Below are positions 2,761 to 61,006 of a stretch of DNA of 64,000 bases, piece by piece. The position numbers and the translations under genes were made by a program. The stretch's first letter is position 1. The number at the start of each line of letters is the position of its first letter. The stretch lies in assembly GCF_964213995.1 (NCBI RefSeq), contig NW_027590219.1, positions 496,001-560,000 on the forward strand. Reading direction: 5' to 3'. This DNA is from Mustelus asterias (taxonomy: Eukaryota). The notes below the pieces were generated by a model that saw only the letters and a program-made list of their open reading frames with translations, was not told the DNA's origin and searched no databases.

Positions 2761-2942
2761 TATTGGACAAGGGACTGTGTAACCTGTGTCTCCAAAGCCA
2801 CCACAGCTTTGGACTTGGGCACCTCCCAATCTTGATCAATCAAACCCATTTTAATGGGAATTAAATGGCTAGTTTCATTTTTAAAAACTTTTATTCACAT
2901 TTCACTTGTCAGAAAGGATCATTTAATTAACAACACGACACA

Positions 2943-12289: not shown

Positions 12290-12790
12290 ATGATGCCAAG
12301 ATGCCTGTTTCCAGTGGTGGTCCACAGTTTTCTGGTATGTGTCAATAATTTTGGCTCAACTGTGTGGAAAATGATTGCTAAGTTTGCATCTGATACAAAA
12401 GTAGCTCCCATGGTTGACAATGAGGAATAAAGCTGTGGACGGCAGGAAGATATTAATGGACTGGGGGGTGAGTCAACACAAAAATAGCAAATAGAATTCA
12501 ATCTGGATGAATGAGAGATTGAATTTGGGAGAGTAAACAAGACAAGGGAATGAACAATACATGGGATGATGTTGAGAATTATAGAGGAACAGAGGGACTT
12601 TGGAGTGCATATCCACTGATCCCTGAAGATGGCTGCACATGAAGATCAGATAGTCAAGAAGGCATTTGGGACACTTTCCTGTCTGAGGCCTGGAATATAA
12701 GAGCAGGGAGATTACGTTAGAACTGATAAAAGACGAGTTAGAACACAGCTAGAATACTGAGCACAGTTCTGGTCACTGCATCATCCAACT
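12290..12790 (+). mobile_element. Degraded CR1 RT fragment
   Basis: KFASDTKV (FADD-like) at ~12380; QRDFGVHIH; LEY.AQFWS relics. Confidence 0.65.
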
Positions 12791-13299
12791 ATAAAGTAAG
12801 ACATGATTCATTAATTTGTATAAAACTGATCATTTATCATATAATTGCAGATCATGTTTAATTCATCAAATTTAGGAGATAAATAATTATAAGGTGACTT
12901 CAGGAAAATGGAAAAGGCTGATTAGTGACTAGCTGGAGAATCTTTATTTATTTTAATCTTGACTTTACTTTTCATAGAATCCCTACAGTGCAGAAGGAGG
13001 CCATTCAGCCCATCGAGTCTGCACTGACTCTCAGACAGTGTCTCGAGAGGAGTTGGATTCTGCTTTTGTTGCTGCTGTTGATCATATTTAGGATTGAATC
13101 ACATTAATTCTGGCTTTTATTTTGCTGATGTTAATTCCTGTAATGTGGCTGGAGTTTAATATTTTAATACATCAAATAAATCAGCTTTGTTTCAAACAGA
13201 CAGCGTTTTGTGTGGTTCATCTCTGAGATGTCATGAACATTTTCCCTTAAATCTGCTCTGGAAATGTATTTAACAGAAGATCAACAATTAAATACGTTG

Positions 13300-14700
13300 C
13301 ATCAAATAATTGGGAAAAATCCACTGGGGGCATTCATTTCTCAATTAATTCTGTTCTGGAACGTTCTGCCTGAAAGGGGATGGAAGCAGATTCAGATACA
13401 TCTTTCCGAAGTGAATTGGATCTCCAGTTGAAGGTAAAGTTAGCAGGGCTCTGGGGAAAGGGGAGGGGAGTGGGGCGGATGGGCAGCTCTTTCAAATGTG
13501 ACCACAACCCCATAAGGCAGCTGTATATTGACAGGAGAAAGGCTGATGTCCAAATACCCGAGAATAATAAGGAAGTTGTGATGAACCAAAATAAAGCATT
13601 GGTTCAGCCTCAACTGGAGCATTGTGGCCAACTCCGGATAGATCGCTATAGGAAGGAGGTGAAGACATTGTAGAGGATGCAGAAAAAATTCATGAGACTG
13701 ATTCCAGGGATGAGAAACTTCAGTTATGAGGGTAGATCGGCAAAGCTGGAGCTGATCTCTATAGAGAAGAGGCGATTCGATAGAAATATTCAAAATCAAG
13801 AGGGATTTGGACAGAGAAGATCGGAAGAAACTATTCTGATTGGCAAAAAGGTCAAGAAGCAGAGGACACAGATTAAAGGTGATCTGTGAAATAAGCAATG
13901 GTGATTTGAGGAAATCCCGTTTCCAGAGTGAGTGGTTAGAACCTGGCGTGCACTGACCCAGTGTGGGGAGGAGGAAGGTTCAAACAAGATTTCAAAACAC
14001 AACTCGATAACTATCTGAAGAGAAAAAAAATGTTCAGGATTACGAGAGAAAGACTGTGCACTGGCCGAGGGAGAGGCCAGGGAGGGACCGAGGGAGAGGC
14101 CGGGGAGTGACCGAGGGAGAGGCCAGGGAGGGACCGAGGGAGAGGCCAGGGAGGGATGGAGGGAGAGGCCAGGGAGGGATGGAGGGAGAGGCCAGGGAGG
14201 GATCGAGGGAGAGGCCAGGGAGGGATCGAGGGAGAGGCCGGGGAGGGAGCGAGGGAAAGGATGGGAGTGACCGAGGGTGAGGCCGGGGAGTGACCGAGGG
14301 AGAGGCCGGGGAGTGACCGAAGGAGAGGCCGGGGAGTGACCGAGGGAGAGGCCAGGGAGGGATGGAGGGAGAGGCCAGGGAGGGATGGAGGGAGAGGCCA
14401 GGGAGGGAGCGAGGGAAAGGACGGGAGTGACCGAGGGTGAGGCCGGGAGTGACCGAGGGAGAGGCCGGGCAGTGACCGAGGGAGAGGCCGGGCAGTGACC
14501 GAGGGAGAGGCCGGGAAGTGACCGAGGGAGAGGCCGGGGAGTGACCGAGGGAGAGGCCGGGGAGTAACGAGGGAGAGGCCGGGGAGTAACGAGGGAGAGG
14601 TTGGGGAGTGGGACTGGCTGTGTCACTCTCTCAGAAAGCTGGTGTGGGTGTGAACACGATGGGCTGAATGACCTCTTTATTTGCTGTCATCGTTCTCTAA
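13300..14700 (+). mobile_element. Degraded CR1 fragments hosting a G-rich minisatellite
   Basis: LVQPQLEHC..MQKKFMRLIPGMRNFSYE; CR1-like tail after 14610. Confidence 0.65.
14063..14610 (+). repeat. G-rich ~23-bp minisatellite (gagggagaggccggggagtgacc / gagggagaggccagggagggatg variants)
   Basis: About 24 tandem units of two variant types, seen directly. Confidence 0.92.
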
Positions 14701-19507: not shown

Positions 19508-20045
19508 AATAAGACCCCGTTTGGAATACTGTGTGCAATTCTGGTCACCCTATTATAGAAAGGATATGATTAAACTAGAAAGATTGCAGAAAAGATTTAC
19601 TCGGATGCTACCGGGACTTGATGGATTGAGTTATAAGGAGAGGCTGGATAGATGGGACTTTTTTCTCTGGAGCATAGGAGGCCGAGGGGTGATCTTATCG
19701 AGGTCTATAAAATAATGAGGGACACAGATCAGCTAGATAGTCAATATCTTTTCCCAAAAGTAGGGGAGTCTAAAACTAGAGGGCATAGGTTTAAGGTGAG
19801 AGGGGAGAGATACAAAAGTGTCCAGAGGGGCAATCTTTTCACACAGAGGGTGGTGAGTGTCTGGAACAATCTGCCAGAGGTAGTCATAGAGGCGGGTACA
19901 ATTTTGTCTTTAAAAAGCTTAGAGAAGTTACATGGGTACGATGGGTGTAGAGGGATATGGGCCAAATGCGGGCAATTGGGATTAGCTTAGGGGTTTTTAA
20001 AAAAAGGGCAAGTTGGGCCGAACCTGCTGTAAACCTCTATGACTA
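19508..20045 (+). mobile_element. CR1 3' fragment (same subfamily as 53665-54238)
   Basis: RPRLEYCVQFWSPYYRKD..RGHRFKVRGERY; ctatgact tail. Confidence 0.9.
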
Positions 20046-20059
20046 ATATATATATGCTC

Positions 20060-21360
20060 TCGTGAACTGAGAGCTTAATGGACAAGGTATTCCAGGTTGA
20101 TGCATCTCAGACACATTCACCTGTGTGCAAAGATTGATTGTCCCGTTTATTAAGCATATATTAAATGCTCACTTGAGTGAAACGCACAGAGTACCTGTTA
20201 GACTTTAATTGGATGATTCTACAGATTGGATAAGCCCTGGTAACATTGTGAATAAAGGGAGTGCTCCTGGTGTTAAAGAGTAGACGAATTGTGAGATTAC
20301 AAAGTAAAGACATTAATATCCTGAAACTTCACAATTATCACAAGGCTGGGATATTGTAGCATGAAAGAATTCCACATACCTAACAGAAGAAAGAGACAAA
20401 GTCCAATCCTGTTAAAGCCATATCCTTGTTTGACTGTATTAGAGTTCGTAGATTGATCTGGGTTTTATGAATCAGGTCCATATCAGTCTGGCGCTGTGTC
20501 TTTGATTTCCAGTGACAGTATGTGGCATCCTTATTAAATTGGCACCACAATATTTAGCCCAGAAATCTGAGGACATCATCAATACAGCCCATTACTGATA
20601 GAATCACCAACTATTCTGAAAGTTTCATTAGTTGTACCTCCTTCACTGGAAACAGCTTCTCTGGCAAAAAAAAAATCGCCCACCATTTCAAACTCTGAAT
20701 GATTGGGGATGTTGCTGGTAAGTGTCCGGGACAAATTGCTATTTGTAAGGTGAAGGTAGATCAGCAGCAGGAGTTAGTGAAGAGGGTGATGGTAAGAACC
20801 AGGCAGACTGACTCACCAAGAAAGCTGCTTTAGAGGAGATTCCATGGGCTTCACCCAAAACATAATCATTGGCACTGGTATGACAGACTCCAGTTAAACC
20901 TGATTTTAAAACTCGTCACGATCCTGACTCTGACATGACTGTGGTCAGATAGGCCGTACACCATAGGAACAACTTTCTCTTATGGCTCACAGCGAGTAAG
21001 GACTGGACAATCCAACAAGGTGGATTGAATTTAACTTGCTGCATTGTGATGTCTTACAAAACAACTAGTTTAGGGATTAAATTAGGAAGTGTTTCTCTTT
21101 TGATTCATCCTTATGTTCATAATTACTACCGGTGGCTGAGGAAACAGGAGGATGTTCCTTACCACTTGAATCTGTGTCCAAATTAATCTGGCTCTGTGAA
21201 ATAAAATGTCCAAATGGACACATCCCATCTGAATGATATTCCCTGGGAAACTTTGCAGGTTGATTATACAGGCCCATTATCCACAGTAAAAGGAGGGAGC
21301 GGGTATATCCTAGTAGGTTGCTTGGTGGATTGAAGCTTTTGCAGTCTGAAAAAAAAGAGA
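20060..21360 (+). mobile_element. Degraded LTR-retroelement/ERV pol relic (integrase core start recognisable)
   Basis: 21241-21345 translates PWETLQVDYTGPLSTVKGGSGYILV then (frameshift) WIEAFAV. The upstream extent is a guess. Confidence 0.6.
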
Positions 21361-21847
21361 CCCAGCTTGTCAATCCTTTCCTAGTATCTAGTACCTACAC
21401 ATTTCTGATATAATTATTGTAAATTTTCTCTTCCCTTTCTAATGCCTCAACTTTTTTTTAATATGGCAACTAGAAGTGCACACAGTGTTTGGTAAGACGT
21501 GATCCAGGGGAATCTGATTACCCAAAAGAGGGACTTGAGCTCATGTGTGAGTTTTAGATTGGTTTATTATGAAACAACAGTTAATAATAATGCATAATGG
21601 AACGAAAACAAAATTGATCTATGACAGTGAGAGCGGTTTCCCAGTTCCCGAGGACAAACCAATGACACAGATTAAATGTTGGTCTCCATTGCTAATAGCT
21701 TCAGTCTCCTCTGAACTGTTCACTGGTGTGAACCAGAGAATGGATGTTGGGCTGAAGCCAGTGTGGATCACTTTGAAATCTGTTCCTTGTCCAAAGTGAT
21801 GGTTATTTTCCTTGAGAGCCTGTTTTAACCTTAACACAAATCGGTTA

Positions 21848-22313
21848 ACAAAGAACAATACAGCACAGGAACAGGCCCTTCGGCCCTCCAAGCCCGTGCT
21901 GCTCCCTGGTCCAAACTAGACCATTCTTTTGTATCCCTCCATTCCCACTCCGTTCATGTGGCTATCTAGATCAGTCTTAAATGTTCCCAGTGTGTCCGCT
22001 CCACCACCTTGCCTGGCAGCGCATTCCAGGCCCCCACCACCCTCTGTGTAAAATACGTCCTTCTGATATCCGTGTTAAACTTCCCCCCCCTCAACTTGAA
22101 CCTATGACCCCTCGTGAATGTCACCATGGACCTGGGAAAAAGCTTCCCACCGTTCACCCTATCTATGCCTTTCATAATTTTATACACCTCTATTAGGTCA
22201 CCCCTCATCCTCCATCTTTCCGGTGAGAACAACCCCAGTTTACCCAATCTCTCCTCATAACTAAGCCCTTCCATACCAGGCAACATCCTGGTAAACCTCC
22301 TCTGCACTCTCTT
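21848..22313 (-). mobile_element. Young CR1 3' fragment (near-identical subfamily to 56090-56985)
   Basis: RVQRRFTRMLPGMEGLSYEERLGKLGLFS..RTYFTQRVVGAWNALP. Confidence 0.9.
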
Positions 22314-23419
22314 TACTTGTAGAAACAGAGAAAATAGGAGCAGGAGGAGGCTATTTGGCCCTACAAGCCTGCTCCACCATTCATTAGGATCATGCCTGGC
22401 CATCCAAGTCATGAGATCAAATCGTATCAGAGTTAGAAATATCTTGTTTCATTGTCTGTGAGGGAGACATATCGTGGACAGTGATAACAGGCCTGTCCTG
22501 TGTTTGTCACCCAGCAACTGCTATGGAAGTGAGAGGGGGAATGAACCATTCCGGTAATATTTAAGAAATGCCTTCATATTTTATCAGTTGTCAATCTCCC
22601 ACCTTGAGAAGGGAAAATTCTTATTGATTCTCACAAACTGATTTCTGATTAATGCAGCTATTCCGAAGCTACAATTGTTTTTCCCTAATTTCTTGATTAC
22701 TTAATATTGATGACATATTAAAGCAACGAGAATGATCAGAATCAGCAACATAAACACATTTTCACTAAAATGTGATACCGGTTGACGTTGATTTATCCGG
22801 AACTGTAGATCATCACTTGCAAATCTATATTACTGATTTGTGGTAAGTACCTCTGGTTGAAACAAAAGTTCAACTTTAAAGATTCTCAACTCCCTTTTCA
22901 CCCAAATCCATCTTGTGGATATTTTCTATATGCCTCTTCAGTTTAATTTTACTCTTCTGATCGATTTCAGTGTCTTTAATTCTGTCCTGTTTATTTTAAC
23001 GTCAGTTTGTCTGTGGAGTCTGTGTCAATACCTTGATGATTTAAAATGTTGTCCCATTCTACTGACCACATTAATCAGTCAATGTTGTTCTGTTAGATGA
23101 GCTGAGCATATCAGGGACCCGTTCTTCAATGCAGCTTCACCAGGCATTTCCACAGGTTAATTAAACCACATATAACATATCACATCTACACACTAACACT
23201 GCTATCCCAGTATAATGTCCCATGTGCCACCTGATAAAAGCCAGCTTCTGGGGTTTCAGGAAATCTTACCAACAGATCATGAAGTGCGTGTGTGTGCGGG
23301 TGCATGTGTGTGTTTGGGGGTGGGGGGGTGGTGTCTCTGTCTGAAGATCTTATCATCCCTGCGTGGTTCCAATACTTCAGGCAGTGGCCAGATTTTCAAA
23401 TTCAGTTTTTTTGTTCAGA

Positions 23420-32726: not shown

Positions 32727-33011
32727 CATGTAATTCTTTGTAAACTTATTTTGCAGGAAATTGAAGAGAAGGATCTGCAGTCTGGATGATCGAATCTCAC
32801 GTCAGACAGAGTCAATCGGTTATAGAACATAGAACATTACAGCGCAGAACAGGCCCTTCGGCCCACGATGTTGCACCGACCAGTTAAAAAAAAACATCGG
32901 GATCTGAAAATTTGTGCATCTGAAGGGATTTAATTGACCATCTCAGTTGGAAACTGGTGAGAATCCGTTCATCTGCTCCTCGTGTGGGAAGGGATTGATC
33001 AGCTGGTAAAC

Positions 33012-34553
33012 ATGCTGACACGACAGCGAGCTCGCAACAGTGAGAGTTCATTCACCTGCTCCGTGTGTGGGAAGAAATTCATGTGTTCGTCCAACCTGCT
33101 GGCTCACCAACTCGATCACATTGATGAGAAGCCTCTTCAAAGCTCTGACTCTGGGGACAGCGTTGAGACGTCTGAGGAACAGGCCCAACACCAGCTCCTT
33201 CACATTGACGAGAGACCGTTCAGCTGCTCCCACTGCGGGAAGAGGTTCAGCCAGTCCTCCCGCCTTGCAGAGCACCAGCTCCTTCACACACACGAGAGAC
33301 CGTTCAGCTGCACTCATTGTGGAGAGTCATTCAGTGACTCAGTGCATCTCACTGAGCACCAACAAGTTCACACCAAGGACAGGCCATTCAGCTGCTCCCA
33401 GTGTGGGAAGAGATTCACTCAGTCCTCCCACTGCACCGTTCACCAACTGGTTCATTCTCAGAAGAGACATTTTAAATGCTTTAAATGTGAGAAGACCTTC
33501 AAAAGAAGGATTAGTCTGCTGAGACACCAGGGCACTCACACCGGGGAGAAGCCGTACCCCTGTTCTGTTTGTGGGAAGAGATTTGCTCATTCATCTCATC
33601 TTCTGACACACAAGCGAGTTCACACTGGGGAGAGGCCTTTCCTCTGCTCCCTGTGTGGGAAGAGATTCACTCGATTTTCACGCCTTTTGACACACAAGAG
33701 TATTCACACTGGAGGGAAACCATTCACCTCCTCAATGTGTAGAAAGGAAGAAGTTCAATCAACTGACCAGCTGACACACCAACAAGTTCACACTGGGGAG
33801 AAGCTGTTCACCTGCTCGGTGTGTGGGAAGGAATTCACTCGGTCTTACTATCTTCTGAGGCACCGGCGAGTTCACACTGGGGAGAGGCCATTCCTCTGCT
33901 CCGTGTGTGGGAAGATGTTTCCTTGTTCATCCCAGCTTGTGATGCACGAGCGTGTTCACACAGGGGAGAGGCCTTACGCTTGCCCTGTGTGCGGGAAAGC
34001 ATTTGCTTCTTCACAACACCTGCTGAGACATCGGCCTGTTCACACCGGGGAGAGGGCGTTCATCTGCTCCGAGTGTGGGAAGGCTTTCACCGAGTCATCC
34101 AGCCTCCGGACACACCGCCGCACTCACACAGGGGAGAAGCCGTTCTCCTGCTCCATTTGTGGCAAGAGATTCACTCAGTCGTCTGACCTGCTGAGACACC
34201 AATACATTCACACAGGGGACAGGCCGTTCACCTGCTCTGTGTGTGGGAAGGGATTCATTGATTCATCCTGCCTGCAGAGACACCAGCGAGTTCACACCGG
34301 GGAGAGACCATTCACCTGCTCTGTGTGTGGGAAGGGATACACTCAGGTATCCAGCCTGCAGAGACACCAGCGAGTTCACACTGGGACAGAACCGTTCGCC
34401 TGCTCCCTGTGTGGGAAGGGATTCACTGATCCATCCCGCCTGCAGAGACACCAGCGAGTTCACACTGGGGCAAAACCTTTCAACTGCTCCATGTGTGGGA
34501 AGGGATTTAATCAGTATTACAGCCTGCTGAAACATAGACGACTTCATGTGTGA
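33012..34553 (+). CDS. C2H2 zinc-finger protein, 16 intact plus 2 degenerate fingers
   Basis: Long open frame. The ORF track starts at GTG 32982; the first in-frame ATG is 33012. The true start is uncertain. Confidence 0.85.
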   Translation: MLTRQRARNSESSFTCSVCGKKFMCSSNLLAHQLDHIDEKPLQSSDSGDSVETSEEQAQHQLLHIDERPFSCSHCGKRFSQSSRLAEHQLLHTHERPFSCTHCGESFSDSVHLTEHQQVHTKDRPFSCSQCGKRFTQSSHCTVHQLVHSQKRHFKCFKCEKTFKRRISLLRHQGTHTGEKPYPCSVCGKRFAHSSHLLTHKRVHTGERPFLCSLCGKRFTRFSRLLTHKSIHTGGKPFTSSMCRKEEVQSTDQLTHQQVHTGEKLFTCSVCGKEFTRSYYLLRHRRVHTGERPFLCSVCGKMFPCSSQLVMHERVHTGERPYACPVCGKAFASSQHLLRHRPVHTGERAFICSECGKAFTESSSLRTHRRTHTGEKPFSCSICGKRFTQSSDLLRHQYIHTGDRPFTCSVCGKGFIDSSCLQRHQRVHTGERPFTCSVCGKGYTQVSSLQRHQRVHTGTEPFACSLCGKGFTDPSRLQRHQRVHTGAKPFNCSMCGKGFNQYYSLLKHRRLHV

Positions 34554-34687
34554 CCGGCAAAGTTGGATTCTGTTGTTTCTGCGCCCTGAGATAAACAATA
34601 ACAATTAGAACATAGAACATAGAAAGCCACAGCACAAACAGGCCCTTCGGCCCACAAGTTGCGCCGATCACATCCCCACCTCTAGGC

Positions 34688-37600
34688 CTATCTATAGCCC
34701 TCAATCCCATTAAATCCCATGTACTCATCCAGAAGTCTCTTAAAAGACCCCAACGAGTTTGCCTCCACCACCACCGACGTCAGCCGATTCCACTCACCCA
34801 CCACCCTCTGAGTGAAAAACTTACCCCTGACATCTCCTCTGTACCTACCCCCCAGCACCTTAAACCTGTGTCCTCTCGTAGCAACCATTTCAGCCCTTGG
34901 AAATAGCCTCTGGGAGTCTACCCTATCCAGACCTCTCAACATCTTGTAAACCTCTATCAGGTCACCTCTCATCCTTCGTCTCTCCAGGGAGAAGAGACCA
35001 AGCTCCCTCAACCTATCCTCATAAGGCATGCCCCCCAATCCAGGCAACATCCTTGTAAATCTCCTCTGCACCCTTTCAATGGCTTCAACATCTTTCCTGT
35101 AATGAGGTGACCAGAACTGCGCGCAGTACTCCAAGTGGGGTCTAACCAGGGTCCTATAAAGCTGCAGCATTATCTCCCGACTCCTAAACTCAATCCCTCG
35201 ATTAATGAAGGCCAGTACGCCGTACGCCTTCTTGACCGCATCCTCCACTTGCGAGGCCGATTTAAGAGTCCTATGGACCCGGACCCCAAGGTCCTTCTGA
35301 TCCTCTACACTGCTAAGAATGGTACCCTTCATATTATACTGCTGCTTCATCCCATTGGATCTGCCAAAATGGATCACCACACACTTATCCGGGTTGAAGT
35401 CCATCTGCCACTTCTCCGCCCAGTCTTGCATTCTATCTATGTCTCGCTGCAACTTCTGACATCCCTCCAAACTATCCACAACACCACCTACCTTGGTGTC
35501 GTCAGCAAACTTACCAACCCATCCCTCCACTTCCTCATCCAGGTCATTTATGAAAATGACAAACAGCAAGGGTCCCAGAACAGATCCCTGGGGCACTCCA
35601 CTGGTCACTGACCTCCATGCAGAGAAAGACCCCTCCACAGCCACTCTCTGCCTTCTGCAGGCAAGCCAGTTCTGGATCCACAAGGCAACAGCCCCTTGGA
35701 TCCCATGCCCTCTCACTTTCTCAAGAAGTCTTGCATGGGGGACCTTATCGAACGCCTTGCTGAAGTCCATATAGACCACATCCACCGCTCTTCCTTCGTC
35801 AATGTGTTTGGTCACATTTTCAAAGAACTCAACCAGGCTTGTAAGGCACGACCTGCCCTTGACAAAGCCGTGCTGACTACTTTTGATCATACTAAACTTC
35901 TCTAGATGATCATAAATCCTGTCTCTCAGGATCCTCTCCATCAACTTACCAACCACTGAGGTTAGACTCACCGGTCGGTAATTTCCCGGGCTGTCCCTGT
36001 TCCCTTTCTTGAATATAGGGACCACATCTGCAATCCTCCAATCCTCCGGAACCTCTCCCGTCTCCATCGACGATGCAAAGATCATCGCCAAAGGCTCCGC
36101 AATCTCCTCCCTCGCCTCCCACAGTAACCTGGGGTACATCCCATCCGGTCCCAGCGACTTACCAACCTTGATGCCATTCAATAGTTCCAACACATCCTCT
36201 TTCTTTATGTCCACATGCTCGATCCTTTCTGTCCACCGCAAACCAGCAGTACAACCACCCAGATCCCTTTCCACCGTGAATACCGAGGTAAAGTATTCAT
36301 TAAGCAGCTCCGCCATTTCTAACGGTTCCGCACAAACTTTTCCCCCTTCACCTTTTAAGGGTCCTATGCCTTCACATCTCATCCTTTTACTCTTGACATA
36401 TTTGTAGAAAGCCTTGGGATTCTCCTTAATCTTACCCGCCAAGGCCTTCTCATGACCCCTTCTCGCTCTCCTAATTTCCTTCTTAAGCTCCTTCCTACAT
36501 CCCGTATACTCCTCTAAATCCTTAATACCTCCTAGCTCTCTGAACCTTCTGTACGCCTCTCTTTTCTTATTCACCAGGTTCATCACAACCTTCGTGCACC
36601 ACGGTTCCCGTACCCTACCAACACCCCCCTGTCTCATCGGAACGTTGTCATGCAGAGCTCCAGACAAACATTCCTTGAAAATCCTCCACTTTCCTTCGGT
36701 ACTTTTCCCCAAGAATGCCTCCTTCCAATTTACCCGTCTAATTTCCTCCCTGATGACACTGTATTTCCCTTTACTCCAGAGAAACACTTTCCTAGCCTGC
36801 CTGATCCTATCTCTTTCCAATGCTATCGTGAAGGAGATAGAATTATGATCGCTATCCCCAAGATGCTCACCCACTGAGAGATCCTCCACCTGTCCAGGTT
36901 CATTAGCCAGCACCAGATCAAGTACAGCCTCTTCTCTAGTAGGCTTATCCACATACTGTGTCAGGAAACTCTCCTGGACACACCTAACAAACTCCTCTCC
37001 ATCCAAACCCCTAGCCCTAGGGATATTCCAATCTATGTTTGGGAAATTAAAATCTCCCATCACGACAACTCTGTTATTCCTACATCTCTCCAGGATCTGT
37101 TTCCCCATCTGCTCCTCAACATCTCTGTTACTATTGGGCGGCCTATAGAAAACACCCAGCAACGTTACCGACCCCTTCCTGTTCCTCACCTCCACCCACA
37201 GAGACTCCGTAGTCAATCCCTCCACGGCGTCCACCTTCTCTACAGCCGTGACACTATCCCTGATCAACAGTGCCACTCCCCCCCCTCTCTTGCCTCCCTC
37301 CCTGTCCTTCCTGAAACATCTAAAACCCGGCACCTGAAGCACCCAGTCCTGTCCCTGAGACATCCAAGTCTCCGTAATGGCCACCACATCACAATTCGAA
37401 GCAGCAATCCACGCTCTAAGCTCATCCACTTTATTCACTACACTCCTGGCATTAAAATAGACACATCTCAGACCTTCAGCCTGAGCACTTCCCTTCTCCA
37501 TCACTCGTCTAACCTCCCTCTTACCCTGTTTACATTCCTTATCTATTTGCGAGCTAACCTCCTCGCTCTCAGTCCCCTCATTTCGATTCCCTCCCCCCAA
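34688..37600 (-). CDS. LINE ORF2: APE endonuclease plus reverse transcriptase
   Basis: YFNARS, AITETW, YRPP, GDFN, SDH (APE); NYRPVSL, QHGF, DFSKAFD, GVPQGSVLGP, FADD (RT). The track start is TTG, the first ATG is at 37501, and the frame is open up to 37630. Confidence 0.95.
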   Translation of the reverse strand: MGGGNRNEGTESEEVSSQIDKECKQGKREVRRVMEKGSAQAEGLRCVYFNARSVVNKVDELRAWIAASNCDVVAITETWMSQGQDWVLQVPGFRCFRKDREGGKRGGGVALLIRDSVTAVEKVDAVEGLTTESLWVEVRNRKGSVTLLGVFYRPPNSNRDVEEQMGKQILERCRNNRVVVMGDFNFPNIDWNIPRARGLDGEEFVRCVQESFLTQYVDKPTREEAVLDLVLANEPGQVEDLSVGEHLGDSDHNSISFTIALERDRIRQARKVFLWSKGKYSVIREEIRRVNWKEAFLGKSTEGKWRIFKECLSGALHDNVPMRQGGVGRVREPWCTKVVMNLVNKKREAYRRFRELGGIKDLEEYTGCRKELKKEIRRARRGHEKALAGKIKENPKAFYKYVKSKRMRCEGIGPLKGEGGKVCAEPLEMAELLNEYFTSVFTVERDLGGCTAGLRWTERIEHVDIKKEDVLELLNGIKVGKSLGPDGMYPRLLWEAREEIAEPLAMIFASSMETGEVPEDWRIADVVPIFKKGNRDSPGNYRPVSLTSVVGKLMERILRDRIYDHLEKFSMIKSSQHGFVKGRSCLTSLVEFFENVTKHIDEGRAVDVVYMDFSKAFDKVPHARLLEKVRGHGIQGAVALWIQNWLACRRQRVAVEGSFSAWRSVTSGVPQGSVLGPLLFVIFINDLDEEVEGWVGKFADDTKVGGVVDSLEGCQKLQRDIDRMQDWAEKWQMDFNPDKCVVIHFGRSNGMKQQYNMKGTILSSVEDQKDLGVRVHRTLKSASQVEDAVKKAYGVLAFINRGIEFRSREIMLQLYRTLVRPHLEYCAQFWSPHYRKDVEAIERVQRRFTRMLPGLGGMPYEDRLRELGLFSLERRRMRGDLIEVYKMLRGLDRVDSQRLFPRAEMVATRGHRFKVLGGRYRGDVRGKFFTQRVVGEWNRLTSVVVEANSLGSFKRLLDEYMGFNGIEGYR

Positions 37601-37605
37601 CCTTT

Positions 37606-38523
37606 CTAGTTTAAAGTCTCTCCAGTAGCCTTAGCCAACCTTCCCGCCAGGATATTGGTCCCCCTGGGATTCAAGTGCCACCCGTCTTTTTTAAACAGGT
37701 CACACCTGCCCCTAAAGAGGTCCCAATGATCCAAGTACCCAAATCCTTGTCCCTTGCTCCAGTCCCTCAGCCACGCATTCATTCTCCACCGATTCCTGTT
37801 CTCACTCTCCCGCGGCACAGGCAGCAATCCCGAGATTACTACCTTTGCATTCCTCTTTCTCAGCTGTCTACCTAACTCCCTATATTCTCTTTTCATGACC
37901 CCTTCCCTCTTCCTACCTATGTCAGCAGTACCTATATGCATCACGACCTTCGGCTCCTCTCCCTCCCCCTTCAGGATTTCTGGGACTCGACCAGAGACAT
38001 CCCGGACCCCTGCACCAGGGAGGCAAACCACCATCCGAGAGTCCCGTCTGTGTCCGCAAAAACGCCTATCTGACCCCCTCACCGTCGAGTCCCCAATTAG
38101 CACTACCCTCCTTTCCTTACCCTTTTGCACTACTGGGCCAGGCTCAGCTCCAGAGACACTGCCACCGCTGCTTCCCCCAGGTGGGCTGTCCACCCCATTA
38201 GTACTCAGACAGGAGTACTTATTATTAAGGGGCACATCCACCGGGGTGCTCACCATCAACTGAGCTTTCTCCTTCCTCACTGTTACCCAGTTACCCTCCT
38301 CCCGTGGTCCCGGTGTGACCACCTGCCGATAGCTCCTGTCAATGACCTCCTCACTATCCCTAACCCGGCGAAGGTCCTCGAGCTGCAATTCCAGTTCCCT
38401 AACATGTTCCCTTAGGAACCGCAGCTCAACACACCCAGCACAGATATGGTCGTCCGGGAGGCTAGGAGCCTCCAGGACCTCCCACATCCTACATTGGAAA
38501 CAACATACTGGCCTCACACTCAT
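37606..38523 (-). CDS. LINE ORF1: zinc-finger/leucine-zipper plus SGNH esterase-like domain
   Basis: CxxC..CxxC, a heptad region (VRELELQLEDL), and LIGDS, PGA, HIGTAD and DGWHLN SGNH blocks. First ATG at 38523. Confidence 0.88.
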   Translation of the reverse strand: MSVRPVCCFQCRMWEVLEAPSLPDDHICAGCVELRFLREHVRELELQLEDLRRVRDSEEVIDRSYRQVVTPGPREEGNWVTVRKEKAQLMVSTPVDVPLNNKYSCLSTNGVDSPPGGSSGGSVSGAEPGPVVQKGKERRVVLIGDSTVRGSDRRFCGHRRDSRMVVCLPGAGVRDVSGRVPEILKGEGEEPKVVMHIGTADIGRKREGVMKREYRELGRQLRKRNAKVVISGLLPVPRESENRNRWRMNAWLRDWSKGQGFGYLDHWDLFRGRCDLFKKDGWHLNPRGTNILAGRLAKATGETLN

Positions 38524-38704: not shown

Positions 38705-39670
38705 GGGGAAAAAAAATCTCTCTCTCCCAGACCTCCCTGCGCGACCACTTCCGGGTTTAGATATTTTTAAAGAAAAAACCCGTGAAAAAGTAAGTTAAAA
38801 ATAACAGCGCTTACCCGCAGCACTCCTCTCGCGAATCTCTCCCTCTCTGCTGCACTTCCAAGACGCAATGAGGCCGATTCACTGAGGTGAGTAACTTTTT
38901 TTAAAAAAAAAAAATCTCTCTCCCAGACCTCCCTGCGCGACCACTTCCGGGTTTAGATATTTTTAAAGAAAAAACCCGCGAAAAAGTAAGTTAAAAATAA
39001 CAGCGCTTACCCGCAGCACTCCTCTCGCGAATCTCTCCCTCTCTGCTGCACTTCCAAGACGCAATGAGGCCGATTCACTGAGGTGAGTAACTTTTTTAAA
39101 AAAAAATCTCTCTCTCCCAGACCTCCCTGCGCGACCACTTCCGGGTTTAGATATTTTTAAAGAAAAAACCCGCGAAAAAGTAAGTTAAAAATAACAGCGC
39201 TTACCCGCAGCACTCCTCTCGCGAATCTCTCCCTCTCTGCTGCACTTCCAAGACGCAATGAGGCCGATTCACTGAGGTGAGTAACTTTTTTTTAAAAAAA
39301 TCTCTCTCTCCCAGACCTCCCTGCGCGACCACTTCCGGGTTTAGATATTTTTAAAGAAAAAACCCGCGAAAAAGTAAGTTAAAAATAACAGCGCTTACCC
39401 GCAGCACTCCTCTCGCGAATCTCTCCCTCTCTGCTGCACTTCCAAGACGCAATGAGGCCGATTCACTGAGGTGAGTAACTTTTAAAAAAAAAAAATCTCT
39501 CTCTCCCAGACCTCCCTGCGCGACCACTTCCGGGTTTAGATATTTTTTAAGAAAAAACCCGCGAAAAAGTAAGTTAAAAATAACAGCGCTTACCCGCAGC
39601 ACTCCTCTCGCGAATCTCTCCCTCTCTGCTGCACTTCCAAGACGCAATGAGGCTGCACTTCCAAGACGCA
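38705..39670 (-). repeat. ~195-bp tandem monomers (about 4.8 copies) in the LINE 5' UTR
   Basis: cccagacctccctgcgcg recurs at ~38726, 38922, 39116, 39309 and 39505. CpG-rich, each with CCGGAAGT on the minus strand. Confidence 0.92.
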
Positions 39671-41995: not shown

Positions 41996-41999
41996 TTTT

Positions 42000-42310
42000 G
42001 GAAGGAGTAATTTGACAAGGAAAAATTCAATGAACGGCATGACACTAGTAAGCTCTGTGGAACAAAGGGACCAGGGTGTGATTGTCCATAGATCTCTGAG
42101 GACAGAAGTGTATGTTAGTAGGCTGGTGAAAAAGGCATGTAGGACACTTGCCTTTATCAATTGAGGTATAGATTACAAAAGCAAGGAAGTCATGTTGGAG
42201 TTGCATAGAACTGTGGTGAGGTCACTGCTGGAATACTGTGTGCAGTTCTGGTCGCCACATTATAAGAAGGATGTGATTGCATTGGAGGGGGTGCAGAGGA
42301 GATTTACCAG
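42000..42310 (+). mobile_element. CR1 RT C-terminal fragment
   Basis: LLEYCVQFWSPHYKKDVIALEGVQRRFT. Confidence 0.75.
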
Positions 42311-50786: not shown

Positions 50787-51522
50787 CAAAGAACAAAGAA
50801 CAGAACAGCACAGGAAACAGGCCCTTCGGCCCTCCAAGCCTGTGCCGCCCCTTGGTCCAACTAGACCAATCGTTTGTATCCCTCCATTCCCAGGCTGCTC
50901 ATGTGACTATCCAGGTAAGTCTTAAACGATGTCAGCGTGTCTGCCTCCACCACCCTACTTGGCAGCGCATTCCAGGCCCCCACCACCCTCTGTGTAAAAA
51001 ACATCGCTCTAATATCTGAGTTATACTTCGACCCTCTCACCTTGAGCCCATGACCCCTCGTGACCGTCACTTCTGATCTGGGAAAAAGCTTCCCACTGTT
51101 CACCCTATCTATACCATTCATAATCTTGTACACCTCTATTAGATCTCCCCTCATTCTCCGTCTTTCCAGGGAGAACAACCCCAGTTTACCCAATCTCTCC
51201 TCATAGCTAAGACCCTCCATACCAGGCAACATCCTGGTAAACCTTCTCTGCACTCTCTCTAACGCCTCCACGTCCTTCTGGTAGTGCGGCGACCAGAACT
51301 GGACGCAGTACTCCAAATGTGGCCTAACCAGCGTTCTATACAGCTGCATCATCAGACTCCAGCTTTTATACTCTATACCCTGTCCTATAAAGGCAAGCAT
51401 CCCATATGCCTTCTTCACCACCTTCTCCACCTGCGTTGCCACCTTCAAGGATTTGTGGACTTGCACACCTAGGTCCCTCTGTGTTTCTATACTCTTGATG
51501 GCTCTGCCATTTATTGTATAAC
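50787..51522 (-). mobile_element. Young CR1 3' fragment (open 201 aa)
   Basis: LVRPHLEYCVQFWSPHY..QRRFTRMLP. Its tail matches the 24950-25052 insertion. Confidence 0.92.
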
Positions 51523-53076
51523 TCCTGCCTCCTTTTTACTTTCCAGATATTTTCCTGGGTATTCTGGGGACCAAATTGGAGATTTAAACTCAAACATATC
51601 AGGAACCACAGGTCTTAACATTGGCCAAAAGCAAAATCCTCCAGGTTTGGGAAATACTCAGATGTTCAGTCTCCATCTATGAAGGGAGAAACAGTCTTCA
51701 TGTTTGCTCGATGACCTTTCATCAGAGCCCACTGTGGGACCGTCAACGTTCCTGTGAAGGGTTTTGGGGTGTGTTGAGGATGGTCGAGGTGCTATATAAA
51801 TGCAGCTTGTTGTTGATATTGACTGAGGGTGGGATTCAGTCACCTATCTGAGCTGGAAGCTCGATCCAGTCCTGCTGGGGGAGAGCTTACCAGCTGCATG
51901 ATGAAAGGGATTAACTCGTCCCATTCAGTGACACAGTCGGACAGTCACACTGAGAAAGGGTTCAGACACTTCCTGTCTCTGACAGGATTTACTCAGCTTT
52001 CCCACCTGTTAACATCCCAGTTTTAAAAATCAAATGATTTCTTGCACAATCAGTGGCGGAGAGTCAGTGTGTGGGCAAGGAAGATTCACAAACACTTCCC
52101 TCAGGCGGCAAATCCCAAATCCACATTTGCCCCATTAGGGTTGGCAGCTCTGGGCATTGCCCGGGTGGTGGGCCCAGATTAACAGCTGCCATCCTCATAG
52201 GGGGCAATGAGCAGCTGGTCACATGTACACATATTAAGCTGATCTTTCTCTACACCCTAACTATGACTGAAATACTGTAATCTGCACTCTCTCCTTTCCT
52301 TCTCCCTTATGTACTCGATGAATGGTATGTTTTGTCTGCACAGCGCGCAAGAAACATTACTTTTCACATGTGACAATAAATCAAATCAAATGTGTCGTCA
52401 TCCTGGGCTCGGAGGAGGGAATGTTGTGAATTTCCCAGAATTGTTACAGCACAGAAAGAGGCCATTTGGCCCATTGCGTCTGTGCTGGCTCTCGGAACGA
52501 GCAATTCATGGAGAGCTATTTCCCTGCCTCCTCCCTGTAACCCGGATCATTCATCCCCTTCAGATAACCAAATTCAGATTTTGTATCCTGGACTGACAGT
52601 GATGGATTTTGGGAATTCCTCTTACAGAGGGTTAGAAGGGGAAGATTTACACACAGCAAACTCAAACCAAAAGAAATGTTTGTTCTGAATGTTATCTTGT
52701 CCCTGCATTGACAGCTTTTTTCAACACCTTTCCCACAGGGAGTGACAGTCGGGAAACACATTTCAATATCTGAAAAATTCACTCAATTCATCAGGAGCCG
52801 AATATTATCGACCTTTGAATGTGGAAGGAGAAATGTTGGTCTGTTCTGTCTGTGGGAAAAGATTTCAAACATCAGTATGACTGGAAAATCACTGAGACAC
52901 ACACACACCAGAGTGCGAGTGTTCCAGTGAACTGACTGTGGAAAGAGCTTTAACCAGTTACACAGCCTGAAAAACATCACACCATTCACAGCGAGAAGAA
53001 ACTGTACAGATGTTCTGTGTATGGATGAGGCTTCAACTGATCATCCAACCTGGAGAGACACACGGATACCAACACC

Positions 53077-53571
53077 ATGGAGAAACCGTGGAAATGTGAG
53101 TTCTGTGGGAAAGGATTCAGTTCTCCATCCAATCTGGAAGCTCATCGACGCAGTCACACCGGGGAACGGCCATTCACCTGCTCTGGGTGTGGGAAAGGAT
53201 TCACTCAGTTATCCTGTCTTCAGACACACCATCTTGTTCATTCTGAGAACAAACTTTTCACTTGCTCTGACTGTGAGAACAGTTTTAAAAGGAAACCATA
53301 TTTGCTGACTCACCACCGTATTCACACTGAGCAGAGACCTTCTCTGCGTGTGGGAAGGGATCAATCATCCAACCTGCAGACACACCAGCAAGTTCACACT
53401 GGGGAGAGGCCATTCACCTGCTCCGAATGTGGGAAGGGATTCATTCAGTCATCCCACCTACTGAGATACAAAGAAGTTTACACAGGGGAGAGGCCATTCA
53501 CCTGTTCCCTGTGTGGGAAGAGATTCACTAATTCATCCCACCTACTGAGACACCAGCGGGTTCACAAGTAA
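53077..53571 (+). CDS. C2H2 zinc-finger protein, 4 intact plus 2 degenerate fingers
   Basis: 164-aa ORF MEKPWKC...HQRVHK*. Finger 4 is partly deleted in-frame; finger 5 has His to Tyr changes. Confidence 0.65.
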   Translation: MEKPWKCEFCGKGFSSPSNLEAHRRSHTGERPFTCSGCGKGFTQLSCLQTHHLVHSENKLFTCSDCENSFKRKPYLLTHHRIHTEQRPSLRVGRDQSSNLQTHQQVHTGERPFTCSECGKGFIQSSHLLRYKEVYTGERPFTCSLCGKRFTNSSHLLRHQRVHK

Positions 53572-53664
53572 CAGCAGGGATTGGATTCTGCTGTTATTGC
53601 TGCTGTTAATCACATCCTGGATTGAACCATGTTCATTCTAACTTTTTCAGTTTGTTTCTGTTGA

Positions 53665-54238
53665 TGTTGTACAAGACATTGGTAAGGCCACAATTGGAAT
53701 ACTGTGTGCGGTTCTGGTCACCCTATTATAGAAAGGATATTATTAAACTAGAAAGAGTGCAGAAAAGATTTACTCAGATGCTACCGGGACTTGATGGTTT
53801 GAGTTATAAGGAGAGGCTGGATAGACTGGGACTTTTTTCTCTGGAGCGTAGGAGGCTGAGGGGTGATCTTATAGAGGTCTATAAAATAATGAGGGGCCAG
53901 ATCAGCTAGATAGTCAATATCTTTTCCCAAAGGTAGGGGAGTCTAAAACGAGAGGGCAAAGGTTTAAGGTGAGAGGGGAGAGATACAAAAGTGTCCAGAG
54001 GGGCAATTTCTTCATACAGAGGGTGGTGAGTGTCTGGAACAAGCTGCCAGAGGTAGTAGTAGAGGTGGGTACAATTTTGTCTTTTAAAAAGCATTTAGAT
54101 AGTTACATGGGTAAGATGTGTATAGAGGGATATGGGCCAAATGTAGGCAATTGGGATTAGCTTAGGGGTTTAAAAAAAAGGGCAGCATGGACAAGTTGGG
54201 CCGAAGGGCCTGTTTCCATGCTGTAAACCTCTATGACT
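53665..54238 (+). mobile_element. CR1 3' fragment inserted in the ZNF 3' UTR
   Basis: LVRPQLEYCVRFWSPYY. The UTR resumes at atgttaatc (54239). Confidence 0.9.
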
Positions 54239-54394
54239 ATGTTAATCATCCGAAGAACTGAGCTGGAGTTTAAGATTCTGAATACAGGTGAAATAAATTA
54301 GCTCAGTATTAAACACCCGGTGTGTTGCGTATTTGTTAAGAGACTAACTGAAATCCTGTTCTCCACTGTTCCATTTCTGGGTCTTCTCTCAGTT

Positions 54395-54785
54395 GAAGGA
54401 ACATTTATATTTGTGTTGAGCCTTTCCTGACATCAGGTTGTTCCAAAGCTTTTCTGGCCAATCAGACAGTGTTGGAAATGCAGCAGCTCATTTGCGCAGC
54501 AAGATCCCATAGAAAATAATCCAGATAATGTATTTGAGTGATCTTGATTGAGGGATAAAGGTTGATCAAGACTCTGGGGAGAAATCCCCTGCTCTTTGAA
54601 AGAGCATCAATGGATCTCTTATGCCTGACTGTTCAGTCTCACTTGGAACACAGGACCTCTGACAGTGCGGGGCTCCCTCAGTACTGCAGTGGAATGTCAG
54701 CCTGGAATTTCTGTTCACTTCTCTGGATTTGAAAACACAGCCTCCTGACTCAGATATGAGAAAGCAACCACTGAGACAAGACTAA
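54395..54785 (-). mobile_element. DeuSINE-like (SacSINE1/AmnSINE-type) element
   Basis: Minus strand has a tRNA-like head, then aggctgacattccactgcagtactgagggag..gcactgtcagagg (resembles the Deu domain as recalled) and an L2-like tail. Confidence 0.55.
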
Positions 54786-54965
54786 CACCTCATCATTACT
54801 GTGGATTATTTCAGTTTTCAAACCTCTGGTTACCCTCATGGACAAGTCCCAGCTGCCCATTCCTTCAAGTGTGTCTCTCTTAGCCTGGATATCCTGAGGA
54901 GGTGTCGGTAACACAGCCATGTAGCTGTCCTCAGTGTTTAATGGGACAGTGTGGACACAAATCCA

Positions 54966-55177
54966 CAGGAAGTAGTCTCACAACACCAGGTTAAAATCCA
55001 ACAGGTTTATTTGGTAGCACGAGCTTTCAGAGCGCCGCTCCTTCATCAGGTGAGTGCGTTATGAAGGAGCAGCGCTCCAAAAGCTCATGCTACCAAATAA
55101 ACCCATTGGACTTTAACCTGGTGTTGTGAGACTACTTACTGTGCTTACCCCAGTCCAACACCAGCAACTCCACATCA
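54966..55177. mobile_element. Penelope family-A fold-back element with hammerhead on the minus arm and a partial one on the plus arm
   Basis: Arms of ~85 bp; minus tcac-CTGATGA-aggagcggcgctct-GAA-AGCT-C-gtg. Flanking duplication cacaaatccacagg at 54956 and 55176. Confidence 0.8.
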
Positions 55178-56064
55178 CAAATCCACAGGGACAGTGAGAG
55201 TCCAATTCAATGTTGTACAATCTGTTCAATATTTCATCCTTGGCTCTGAGTCTTTTGGTGATGATTTAAATCTGATGTCTGTTAGTTGCTGACTCATCGA
55301 CTTGGGAAATAGTTTTTTCTCATTTGCCTGATAAAATTTTGAACCCATCCCCAGATTTTCAATCAGTTCTCGTGAAAAGAGCCCCAGTTTCTAGAATCTT
55401 TTCTGATAACTAAAGCCTCTATTCCCTGTGATTGTCTCAGTGAATCTCTTCTGCACGCCATGATTTTGAATGTTTCTATCAAATCTCCTCTCAGTCTTTT
55501 CTCCAAGTGAAAGAGTCCCAAATTCTCCAATCTGTCTTCATCACTGAAGTTTCTCATTCCTGGAATCATTCTCCTAAATCTGATTTTCCACCCTTTGTTT
55601 TCTATTTCCATGTGGAGAGAATTGCTACAAGAACTGGAAAAACTCAGCGTGTCTGCCCATATTTATCAAGAGAGAAAGCAGAGTTAAGGTTTCAGGTCCT
55701 TTGACTTTTCGTCACAGTTGAAGAATTACTGCCCGATTTCACTCTGAGCTCCAATCTTTCACACAATGTTCCCTTGTTCTTGATTCCCCACCAGAGGAAA
55801 TCATTTTTCCATATTTACCCAATTGAAAGGATCAACTGATTTTGGTCAGTTCCCTTTAATCTAGATCAGCACAAATTTCCCTTTTACATTCCAGGACCTG
55901 CAGCATTTCAGGAATGGTTTATAACAAGAAATTCACAATTTCCTATCCCATGAAGAAAAGGTTATGGTTATAACTTAATCCTGGATTGGTGCTGAATCTG
56001 GACATGTAAAGCCAGGTTAAAGTTTAAAGTTGAGATCATTTTTTTAAAGGTGAGATGATGTACT

Positions 56065-57165
56065 AGCGGACTCAAGAACAGCTTCTTCCCTGTTTGCGGA
56101 CAACACAAAATTGGCAGGACTTGCAGATAGTGAGGAGCATTGTCAGAAGCTACAGAAGGATATAGATGGGCTGGAAATTTGGGCAAAGAAATGGCAGATG
56201 GAGTTCAATCCTGATGAATGCGAAGTGATGCATTTTGGTAGAAATAATGTAGGGAGGAGCTATACGATAAATGGCAGAACCATAAAGGGTGTAGATACGC
56301 AGAGGGACCTGGGTGTGCAAGTCCACAGATCCTTGAAGGTGACGTCACAGGTGGAGAAGGTGGTCAAGAAGGCATATGGCATGCTTGCCTTTATAGGACG
56401 GGGCATAGAGTATAAAAGTTGGGGTCTGATGTTGCAGATGTATAGAACGTTGGTTCGGCCGCATTTGGAATATGCGTCCAGTTCTGGTCGCCACACTACC
56501 AGAAGGAGGTGGAGGCTTTGGAGAGAGTACAGAGGAGGTTTACCAGGATGTTGCCTGGTATGGAGGGGCTTAGTTATGAGGAGAGATTGGGTAAACTGGG
56601 GTTGTTCTCCCTGGAAAGACGGAGGATGAGGGGAGACTTTATAGAGGTGTATAAGATTATGAAAGGCATAGATAGGGTGAACGGTGGGAAGCTTTTCCCC
56701 AGGTCGGTGGTGACATTCATGAGGAGTCATAGGTTCAAGGTGAAAGGGGGGAGGTTTAACACAGATATCAGACGGACATATTTTACACAGAGGGTGGTGG
56801 GGGCCTGGAATGCGCTGCCAGGCAAGGTGGTGGAGGCGGACACACTGGGAACATTTAAGACTTATCTAGATAGCCATATGAACGGAGTGGGAATGGAGGG
56901 ATACAAAAGAATGGTCTAGTTTGGACCAGGGAGCAGCGCGGGCTTGGAGGGCCGAAGGGCCTGTTCCTGTGCTGTATTGTTCTTTGCCACCATCAGACTT
57001 TTGAATGCAGATCTTTCTCTCGACCCTATCTGTAAGTGCAACATTATATTCTGCAGCCTTTCCTTCTCCGCTATGTACTCTATGAACAGTATTTATTTTC
57101 TTGCACGCTGTTCAGACACAATACTTTCACTGTATCCCAATAAATGTGACAATAAATCAAATCAA
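56065..57165 (+). mobile_element. Young CR1 fragment (56090-56985) nested in the 3' end of a Rex/Babar- or L2-like LINE
   Basis: The host motif KNSFFP|ATIRLLN is split by the CR1. Host tail tgtgacaataaatcaaatc also occurs at 52370. Confidence 0.75.
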
Positions 57166-59530: not shown

Positions 59531-59892
59531 CCATAAGACCATAAGACATAGGAGCGGAAGTAAGGCCATTCGGCCCATCGAGTCCACTCCACCATTCAAT
59601 CATGGTTGATTTCAACTCCATTTACCCGCTCTCTCCCCATAGCCCTTAATTCCTCGAGAAATCAAGAATTTATCAATTTCTGTCTTGAAGACGCTCAACG
59701 TCTCGGCCTCCACAGCCCTCTGTGGCAATGAATTCCACAGACCCACCACTCTCTGGCTGAAGAAATTTCTCCTCATCTCTGTTCTAAAGTGACTCCCTTT
59801 TATTCTAAGGCTGTGCCCCCGCGTCCTAGTCTCCCCTGTTAATGGAAACAACTTCCCTACGTCCATCCTATCTAAGCCGTTCATTATCTTAT
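59531..59892 (-). mobile_element. CR1 3' fragment
   Basis: RGHSLRIKG..RRNFFSQRVVGLWNSLP; (ccataaga)n tail. Confidence 0.9.
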
Positions 59893-61006
59893 GAGGGAAG
59901 GTGGTGGTGTTATTATTCATTCATGGGACGTGGTCATTGCTGGCTGACCAGCATTTATTGCCCATCCCTAATTGCCTGAGGGCAGTTGAGAGTCAAGCAT
60001 ATAGCTGTAGCTCTGGAGTCATGTGTAAGCCAGACGGAGTAAGGATGGCAGATTTCCAAATAGGCTTTTACAACAATGGTTACATGGTCATCGGTAGATT
60101 CTTAATTCCAGCTAATTTTTTTGTTTATTGAATTCAAATTCCACCACTTTCCGTGGTGGGATTCGAACCCGGGCCTCCAGAACGTTGGCTGAGTTTCTGG
60201 ATTAATAGTCTAGTGACAATACCACTTGGCCATCAACTCCCCGTAATGGTATTGTCGCTGGACTAGGAGCCCAGAGACTCAGGCCAAGATCTGGGGGCCA
60301 TTTGAATTCAATAAAAATAAAATTTAAAAAGGCTAATGACAATTGTCGTAGCAACCCATCTTGGTTCATTAATATCCTTTAGGAAAGGAAATCTGCCATC
60401 CTTATTTGGCAATATGGTTAGGGATGGACAATAAACATTGGCAATGCTCACATCCCATTAATTAAAAAAAACACACAATGATACAGATTGGTTCTGCCAC
60501 AGTTGTCAGGAAGAGTCAGCAGCCAGGAATTGGACAATGTCTTCAGATTTCCCAGTTTATTATTGGAGGACTGGTGTCAGACAAATTAAACATCAGGCTG
60601 ATGTGCAGGGCAACTTGGAGGTGATGTTCACATATAGCTGCTTCCCCTAGTCATTCTAGACTGCGGAGATTGAGGGTTTGGGAGATTCTGTCACTGTTCC
60701 TATCAAGTTGTACATCTATAAAAAATCTCTACTTCGCTCTGCCTCTCTCACCTCTTTCTCTCTCATCCCATTGCTGTGGCAAGTTTCCTGCCCTCATGTT
60801 GATTCCATAAATCAGCAGATCCATTCCGTTCAATTTTACAAACTGCCTTTGTGATCCTGTGGGTTTTCTCATTCTCTCTTTTTTTCTGTTTTAAATCTCT
60901 CAGAATATTTGAAGAGAAGGATTTGCAGCCGGGACATTCAAACCCACAGCAGAATCTGACAGAATTACCCAATTTATCGTAACCCGACTATCATTTTACT
61001 TTGAAC

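Follow-up and report, generated by a model that had tools for sequence, protein, structure and literature searches.

A deeply conserved slippery heptamer at the ORF1-ORF2 junction of a CR1 LINE from Mustelus asterias suggests programmed -1 frameshifting

How long interspersed elements (LINEs) translate the second of their two open reading frames (ORF1 and ORF2) is listed among the open questions in the covered parts of two papers (PMC3708506, PMC3894237). Here we analyze the ORF1-ORF2 junction of a full-length LINE, assigned to CR1, that lies on the minus strand, from about 39668 to 34607, of a 64,000-nucleotide stretch of Mustelus asterias DNA (NCBI RefSeq assembly GCF_964213995.1, contig NW_027590219.1, positions 496,001 to 560,000; this whole stretch is called the window, and its first letter is position 1). 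SART1, through UAAUG coupling, and mammalian L1, through unconventional reinitiation, resemble this element in having a bicistronic LINE RNA and a low ORF2 output, the latter being a prediction for CR1; according to the covered parts of their descriptions they make a separate ORF2 protein, whereas the window CR1 lacks a stop-start overlap and several of its families lack an AUG (PMC3708506, PMC2881922, PMC3894237, PMC5972666). The -1 frameshift systems treated in the first 300,000 characters of a 2016 review (PMC5009743) are like CR1 in heptamer class and phase and in joining a structural or RNA-binding protein to a polymerase, but CR1 differs in its short conserved G-tract, in having no downstream pseudoknot or stem-loop that could be found, and in the stop codon adjoining the site. 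That portion of the review places U_UUA_AAC, G_GGA_AAC and A_AAA_AAC among the most shift-prone heptamers, ascribes LINE ORF2 to unusual initiation, reports that no natural G-quadruplex stimulator is known, and does not mention CR1. A -1 frameshift already has precedent among LINEs, since the Dictyostelium elements TRE5-A and TRE3-A, which are of the apurinic/apyrimidinic endonuclease (APE) type and non-LTR (LTR, long terminal repeat), need one for ORF2 according to a figure legend (PMC5911963, covered in part). They differ from CR1 in clade, host and ORF1, and the likeness is drawn from the statement in that review.

Canonical-CR1 (PMC13343379, covered in part) is like the window element in its esterase ORF1, its ORF2 composed of APE and reverse transcriptase (RT), its tandem 5' units and its short repeat tail, and its consensus rows have the same heptamer and stop; the passages searched do not mention frameshifting, overlap, start codon or translation. 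CR1 frameshifting is not described in the covered parts of PMC11835228, PMC3905857, PMC2734521, PMC4120745 and PMC5006619, and full-text searches, whose coverage excludes most subscription papers and the CR1 papers of the 1990s, found no description of it; those older papers may mention the overlap. A preliminary description of the window had left novelty to a literature check, and the outcome is divided: the CR1 case was not found in the literature searched, while TRE5-A and TRE3-A precede it among LINEs. The CR1 junction would be a variant of a known -1 frameshift mechanism.

On the minus strand ORF1 ends in GAG ACT TTA AAC TAG, in which the slippery heptamer U_UUA_AAC (37609..37615) stands in ORF1 phase and adjoins the stop codon. 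ORF1 (37606..38523) encodes 305 amino acids from ATG 38523 to the TAG at 37608-37606. ORF2 (34688..37630, minus strand) lies in the -1 frame, which is open from 37630 to 34691 for 980 codons, 973 of them after the slip site, and consists of a linker, the APE endonuclease and the RT (domain matches PF03372 and PF00078). The 22-nt overlap of ORF1 with the -1 frame (37609..37630, minus strand) is the only stretch that lets an ORF1 ribosome enter that open frame. The first in-frame ATG of ORF2 (37499..37501, minus strand) forms codon 37 of the -1 frame and has a G at both -3 and +4, and two out-of-frame ATGs precede it, at 37581 and 37535. The site and its phase can thus be read directly from the DNA, and the preliminary description was accurate on both, as it was on the opening of ORF2 at 37630, on the lack of an in-frame ATG before 37501 and on the intactness of the CR1 LINE. 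A lone site is only suggestive, because 29 of the 5849 stop triplets in the window (both strands) follow some canonical X_XXY_YYZ heptamer, one of them U_UUA_AAC; the evidential weight comes from conservation of the heptamer.

Copies were gathered using the window DNA and seven homologous ORF1 proteins, the best 10-30 loci being taken per search; six of the seven proteins themselves end in Leu-Asn (LN), which biases ascertainment slightly. The DGxHL motif rather than the heptamer served as the anchor, and this gave 125 loci, 109 of them distinct. With four rearranged family A copies (all with the heptamer) and one locus with no junction (L134) excluded, 104 copies were sorted into eight families, A to H, with 60-82% identity between them in the 3' portion of ORF1. 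Of these 104 copies, 96 have the heptamer in place (A 24/24, B 6/8, C 10/11, D 4/6, E 18/20, F 2/2, G 23/24 and H 9/9), and the eight misses are five point changes, two upstream-indel offsets that retain the heptamer, and one truncation. Copy L228, retrieved by the query without an LN end, also has it. The ORF1 stop that follows is TAG or TAA depending on the family, and rarely TGA. Over the last 501 nt of ORF1 in eight representatives, no other invariant run is as long as the heptamer (7 nt, the next being three 5-nt runs). In the other 160 ungapped codon columns, invariant sites number 1 among 30 four-fold sites, 3 among 11 two-fold columns and 0 among the 10 columns in which Leu is invariant, and TTA makes up 17 of the 117 Leu codons; the pooled product for the three fixed synonymous choices is about 0.001 when the sites are taken as independent. 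The heptamer is conserved beyond coding need, and this too is observed directly.

Among the rows listed for contigs of four public RNA runs, positions 37605-37615 are unchanged and 37604, 37616, 37619 and 37621 vary, a weak indication; one contig in these runs has a 9-nt deletion across the 37605-37615 region. The runs consist of assembled contigs, mostly of guessed type, from which expression, strand and slippage are not readable. In four copies (L089-L091 and L073) the ORF1 stop is mutated to a sense codon and the heptamer is retained; L089-L091 have the stop change in common and lie on small contigs, perhaps as an amplified segment.

The phase of ORF2 is conserved along with the heptamer. 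In the eight representatives the codon of the APE Asn motif is number 53, 47, 46, 52, 49, 50, 62 and 79 of the -1 frame, which is stop-free up to that motif in 8/8; frame 0, by comparison, has 1-4 stops and frame +1 has 2-8. The eight linkers all differ in length and all keep the -1 phase. The joint chance of stop-free linkers, 6e-9 from shuffled linkers, is generous because the representatives were chosen as open and are related, and a fairer measure is the number of copies in open -1 phase: A 24/24, B 7/8, C 7/11, D 3/6, E 15/20, F 1/2 and G 13/24. Family H was considered as a counter-example (1/9 open) and rejected as such, the motif window having been too short: 20 of 20 further copies, chosen for intact ORF1, are in the -1 phase, 14 of them with the full 1004-codon ORF2. 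The -1 frame of this family opens a mere 10 nt upstream of the stop. Both the heptamer and its phase, on whose conservation among intact relatives the preliminary description had made its proposal depend, therefore hold in eight families.

Some families have no AUG before the endonuclease. Twenty copies of a young C subfamily, chosen on ORF1 score, are 99.3% alike and are all in the -1 phase, 11 of them with the full 966-codon ORF2. Their first AUG is codon 124, beyond Asn46 and Glu73 (one copy has a private AUG at codon 53), and Glu73 aligns to E43 of the L1 endonuclease, which we take to be the catalytic Glu. An AUG start would thus cost this recently amplified family the first third of its endonuclease. 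In addition, no AUG precedes the APE motif in families E (0/15), G (0/13) and F (0/1). The open -1 linker and these families without an AUG before the endonuclease are direct observations. Since AUG-less families exist, an AUG such as that at 37501 cannot be a general requirement for making ORF2; sole dependence on that ATG was among the outcomes that the preliminary description had named as refuting its proposal.

Relatives beyond the genome extend the pattern. The LN terminus is present in 22 of 25 complete close ORF1 homologs (28 of 31 matches were aligned). Among the best 150 profile matches at wider distance, 93 carry the motif 20-40 residues from the end and 64 of these end in Asn, preceded by L in 45, G in 11, K in 3, S in 3 and E in 2. 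An X_XXA_AAC site would lead one to expect L, G, K or P before Asn, with the preceding codon restricted. Indeed, the residue before LN lacks a T-ending codon in 1 of 45 cases (16% expected, p 0.004, a value that overstates independence since families and homolog clusters are related, which counts against our interpretation), and Gln stands before 9 of 11 GN ends versus 0 of 45 LN ends. LN-ending members with names include a snake, two lizards, a turtle and an eel. That a GN end reflects G_GGA_AAC was predicted before the DNA was inspected, and two GN-type loci then showed G_GGA_AAC. In the metagenome locus L095, ORF1 ends in G_GGA_AAC-UAG and the APE follows in an open -1 frame with AUGs from codon 62 on; in L097, G_GGA_AAC lies one codon upstream of the stop, where the contig breaks off.

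In the consensus library of PMC13343379, covered for the first 400 nt of each row with no bird row among them, 30 rows match the heptamer followed by TA or TG; inspection by eye places 18 of them at ORF1 ends with the stop, one at an ORF1 end without it and 11 elsewhere. The 18 rows come from sharks, rays, chimaera, bowfin, halosaur, coelacanth, bullfrog, bearded dragon and crocodilians (six names checked, the others taken from abbreviations). A row search by heptamer is circular for frequency and the gapped consensus rows give no phase; an ORF1-anchored search of the same material found 34 places with six evaluable ORF1 ends, 6/6 with the site. The cross-vertebrate comparison of junctions proposed in the preliminary description is thereby borne out in part, with the heptamer and stop in 18 published consensus ORF1 ends and the -1 phase in eight families of this genome. 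Other searches gave no related loci in metagenome and viral contigs (query A1) or in viral contigs (query A3), and one unrelated bacterial match in prokaryote genomes (query A2). The 32 metagenome loci are mostly bacterial or non-LINE esterases, and the junction pattern has 30 matches in viral contigs, with CR1 homology in 0/30, and none in plasmids. A protein named as a Pseudomonas aeruginosa SGNH hydrolase (P0018) is 54% identical to the window ORF1 and ends in LN; it is probably host contamination in a bacterial record.

Together, these observations support the idea that programmed -1 frameshifting at U_UUA_AAC probably yields a 1278-aa ORF1-ORF2 fusion. Judged by sequence, the junction is a deeply conserved recoding-type signal in a CR1 LINE, and the gag-pol-like fusion suggested in the preliminary description gains support from the heptamer and -1 phase in eight families and from the AUG-less families. 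Most ribosomes would stop at the ORF1 stop and release the 305-aa, 34-kDa ORF1 protein. A minority would slip back one base on the heptamer, with tRNA-Leu and tRNA-Asn moving in tandem, and would read CUA next, giving a 1278-aa, 146-kDa esterase-linker-APE-RT fusion at a presumably low ORF2:ORF1 ratio. The pause driving the slip is the least certain step. Its likeliest source would be a conserved G-tract 11-20 nt downstream of the heptamer (37589..37598, minus strand), a candidate stimulator that may act as a two-tier G-quadruplex or a protein-binding site, possibly aided by the adjacent stop codon. In 72 non-A copies, weighted by family size, G occupies positions +11 to +15 in 92-99% and +18 to +20 in 89-93%. 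Both Gly codons of the tract are GGG in 7/8 representatives, GGG accounting for 48 of 134 Gly codons in ORF1, and the tract lies at the 96th-99.7th percentile of G4Hunter windows in 9/9 sequences; that of L095 is looser and shifted. A GCGAG/CTCGC hairpin downstream of the G-run, also pointed out in the preliminary description, was rejected as stimulator. Its arms are present (37549..37566, minus strand; 37566-37562 and 37553-37549) and not conserved, and the hairpin starts 43 nt after the heptamer, outside the plain minimum-energy fold, and is no better than chance (z = -1.29 for the region; 21 of 200 shuffles fold as well).

Several further points weigh against programmed frameshifting at this site. 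Frameshifting is usually, though not universally, stimulated by a pseudoknot or stem-loop that lies some 5-9 nt beyond the slippery site. Comparison of the families revealed neither of these in conserved form, nor a conserved long-range partner (pseudoknots were not explicitly modelled), so the usual 3' stimulator is missing. Family junctions have fold z-scores of -1.8 to +2.1 with no fold common to the families, and no conserved long-range partner of the G-tract is common to the top matches in three full-length elements. A G-quadruplex is predicted in only 6 of 9 sequences, and not in C or E. No natural ORF1-ORF2 fused protein was found among longer homologs, a weak test whose two matches are both host genes with ORF1 fragments, and the linker residues show only weak third-position bias. 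Among the distant ORF1s, 29 of 93 have no terminal Asn. L099 lacks the heptamer and has its ORF2 in the +1 phase, and L098 and L123 have theirs in frame after UGA-CUA, so not all esterase-type elements share the heptamer and -1 arrangement. Finally, an in-frame AUG precedes the endonuclease in families A (24/24), B (7/7), D (3/3) and H, and in L095, and family D has both the heptamer and a SART1-like UAAUG in the ORF2 frame (L055, L051, L057).

These AUGs raise the alternative that ORF2 is translated by termination-reinitiation, at the AUG at 37501, at the UAAUG of family D or at a near-cognate codon, with the heptamer kept for another reason. This explanation draws on the favourable context of AUG 37501, on the near-cognate codons present in the AUG-less linkers and on the described route of SART1 and L1 (in the parts of the four papers cited above). 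We nevertheless consider it unlikely. The AUG positions are not common to the families (codon 37, 24, 2, 47 or none), the codon following the ORF1 stop varies (GAA, ATT, ATG, GAT, GTT or GAG), two out-of-frame AUGs stand before 37501, and the overlapping UAAUG is present in D and absent from this copy and from 7/8 family representatives. Reinitiation would also leave unexplained the invariant heptamer, its swap for G_GGA_AAC and the stop-free -1 frame upstream of the AUGs. In families with an AUG, this copy included, it may operate alongside frameshifting.

Alternatively, the Leu-Asn end could be a constraint of the esterase protein, as the LN ends of the close homologs might suggest, or the heptamer could be a DNA or RNA signal unrelated to decoding, such as the palindrome GTTTAAAC found in several families, with the -1 phase simply inherited. 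We regard this as very improbable: a constraint on the protein could not hold the codons for Leu and Asn and the wobble base in front of them fixed while other synonymous sites vary, this copy and the G_GGA_AAC loci are not palindromic, and eight different linker lengths keep one phase. Joining of the frames at the RNA level, by polymerase slippage or splicing and not by the ribosome, appears extremely improbable. In one contig from run X2, positions 37664-37991 are skipped, with GT..AG at the two ends on the element sense strand; however, this 328-nt skip would lead into the +1 frame, which ends at the TAA inside the heptamer, and not into ORF2, and the single contig that shows it has one side of 36 nt and a likeness of 80%. 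The four runs, whose contigs drop rare variants, list no insertion at the heptamer, and three like bases in a row make a short template for polymerase slippage. Programmed -1 frameshifting thus remains our preferred interpretation.

In L098 (1316-1322) and L123 (1326-1331), which are of the DGLHP or a related type, the ORF1 TGA is followed by CTA and a stop-free endonuclease-like frame in the same phase. UGA-CUA is a readthrough context, and readthrough is possible as a second route to an ORF1-ORF2 fusion. For the APE domain, PF03372 matches L123 weakly (E 0.007) and has no match in the short L098 piece. In the covered part of the PMC13343379 supplement the UGA-CUA motif occurs at 10 places, none at a visible junction.

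The window LINE is intact and young. Of 1008 candidate genome matches across the junction, the 40 scored (40/40) are 100% identical over 401 bp, and the high dispersed copy number and short tandem-repeat 3' end are as expected for a CR1-clade LINE. The CR1 label is a probable one, drawn from the domain layout and from likeness by eye to rows labelled CR1; the closest named ORF1 homologs are from rays and skates, so that homology by itself indicates a cartilaginous fish as host. The ORF1 domain is a GDSL/SGNH esterase (PF13472, E 8e-13, above the cut-off), and its N-terminus, read by eye, has Cys pairs and a coiled-coil-like stretch. The 5' UTR (untranslated region; 38709..39653, minus strand) is an array of 4.9 copies of 194-bp units, 98% alike with variable T/A runs, which resembles a putative monomer promoter array, and the element 5' end is near 39668. 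The 3' UTR (34607..34687, minus strand) ends in short TTCTATG repeats. A candidate 5-bp target duplication (34606-34602 and 39673-39669) is uncertain.

Immediately behind a C2H2 zinc-finger array exon of some 530 codons (window 32961-34553, plus strand), the LINE sits in antisense orientation; about 50 nt separate the end of the exon from the LINE 3' end. Older 5'-truncated ORF2 fragments of 30-70% identity lie at 243-1228, 2937-3740, 12329-13935, 19509-22316, 41997-42308, 50873-56907 and 59639-59893 of the window; none of them includes an ORF1 junction.

We propose only tentatively, as a scenario that may well prove wrong, that -1 frameshifting is the ancestral route by which esterase-type CR1 elements across jawed vertebrates and beyond produce their RT, in a Gag-Pol-like ORF1-ORF2 fusion, that the G-tract is a natural G-quadruplex or protein-bound stimulator, and that sister lineages arrive at such a fusion through UGA-CUA readthrough. 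The lack of a classical stimulator suggests that the stimulator is of an unusual kind. In most vertebrates, elements of the CR1 group dominate among retrotransposons (PMC13343379, in its covered part). If frameshifting at U_UUA_AAC is confirmed, the CR1 RT would be tethered to the RNA-packaging ORF1 protein and the ORF1:ORF2 ratio would be set by one seven-base site. ORF2 annotations that start at the first AUG would then be wrong or truncated, and CR1 reconstitution would require an intact junction.

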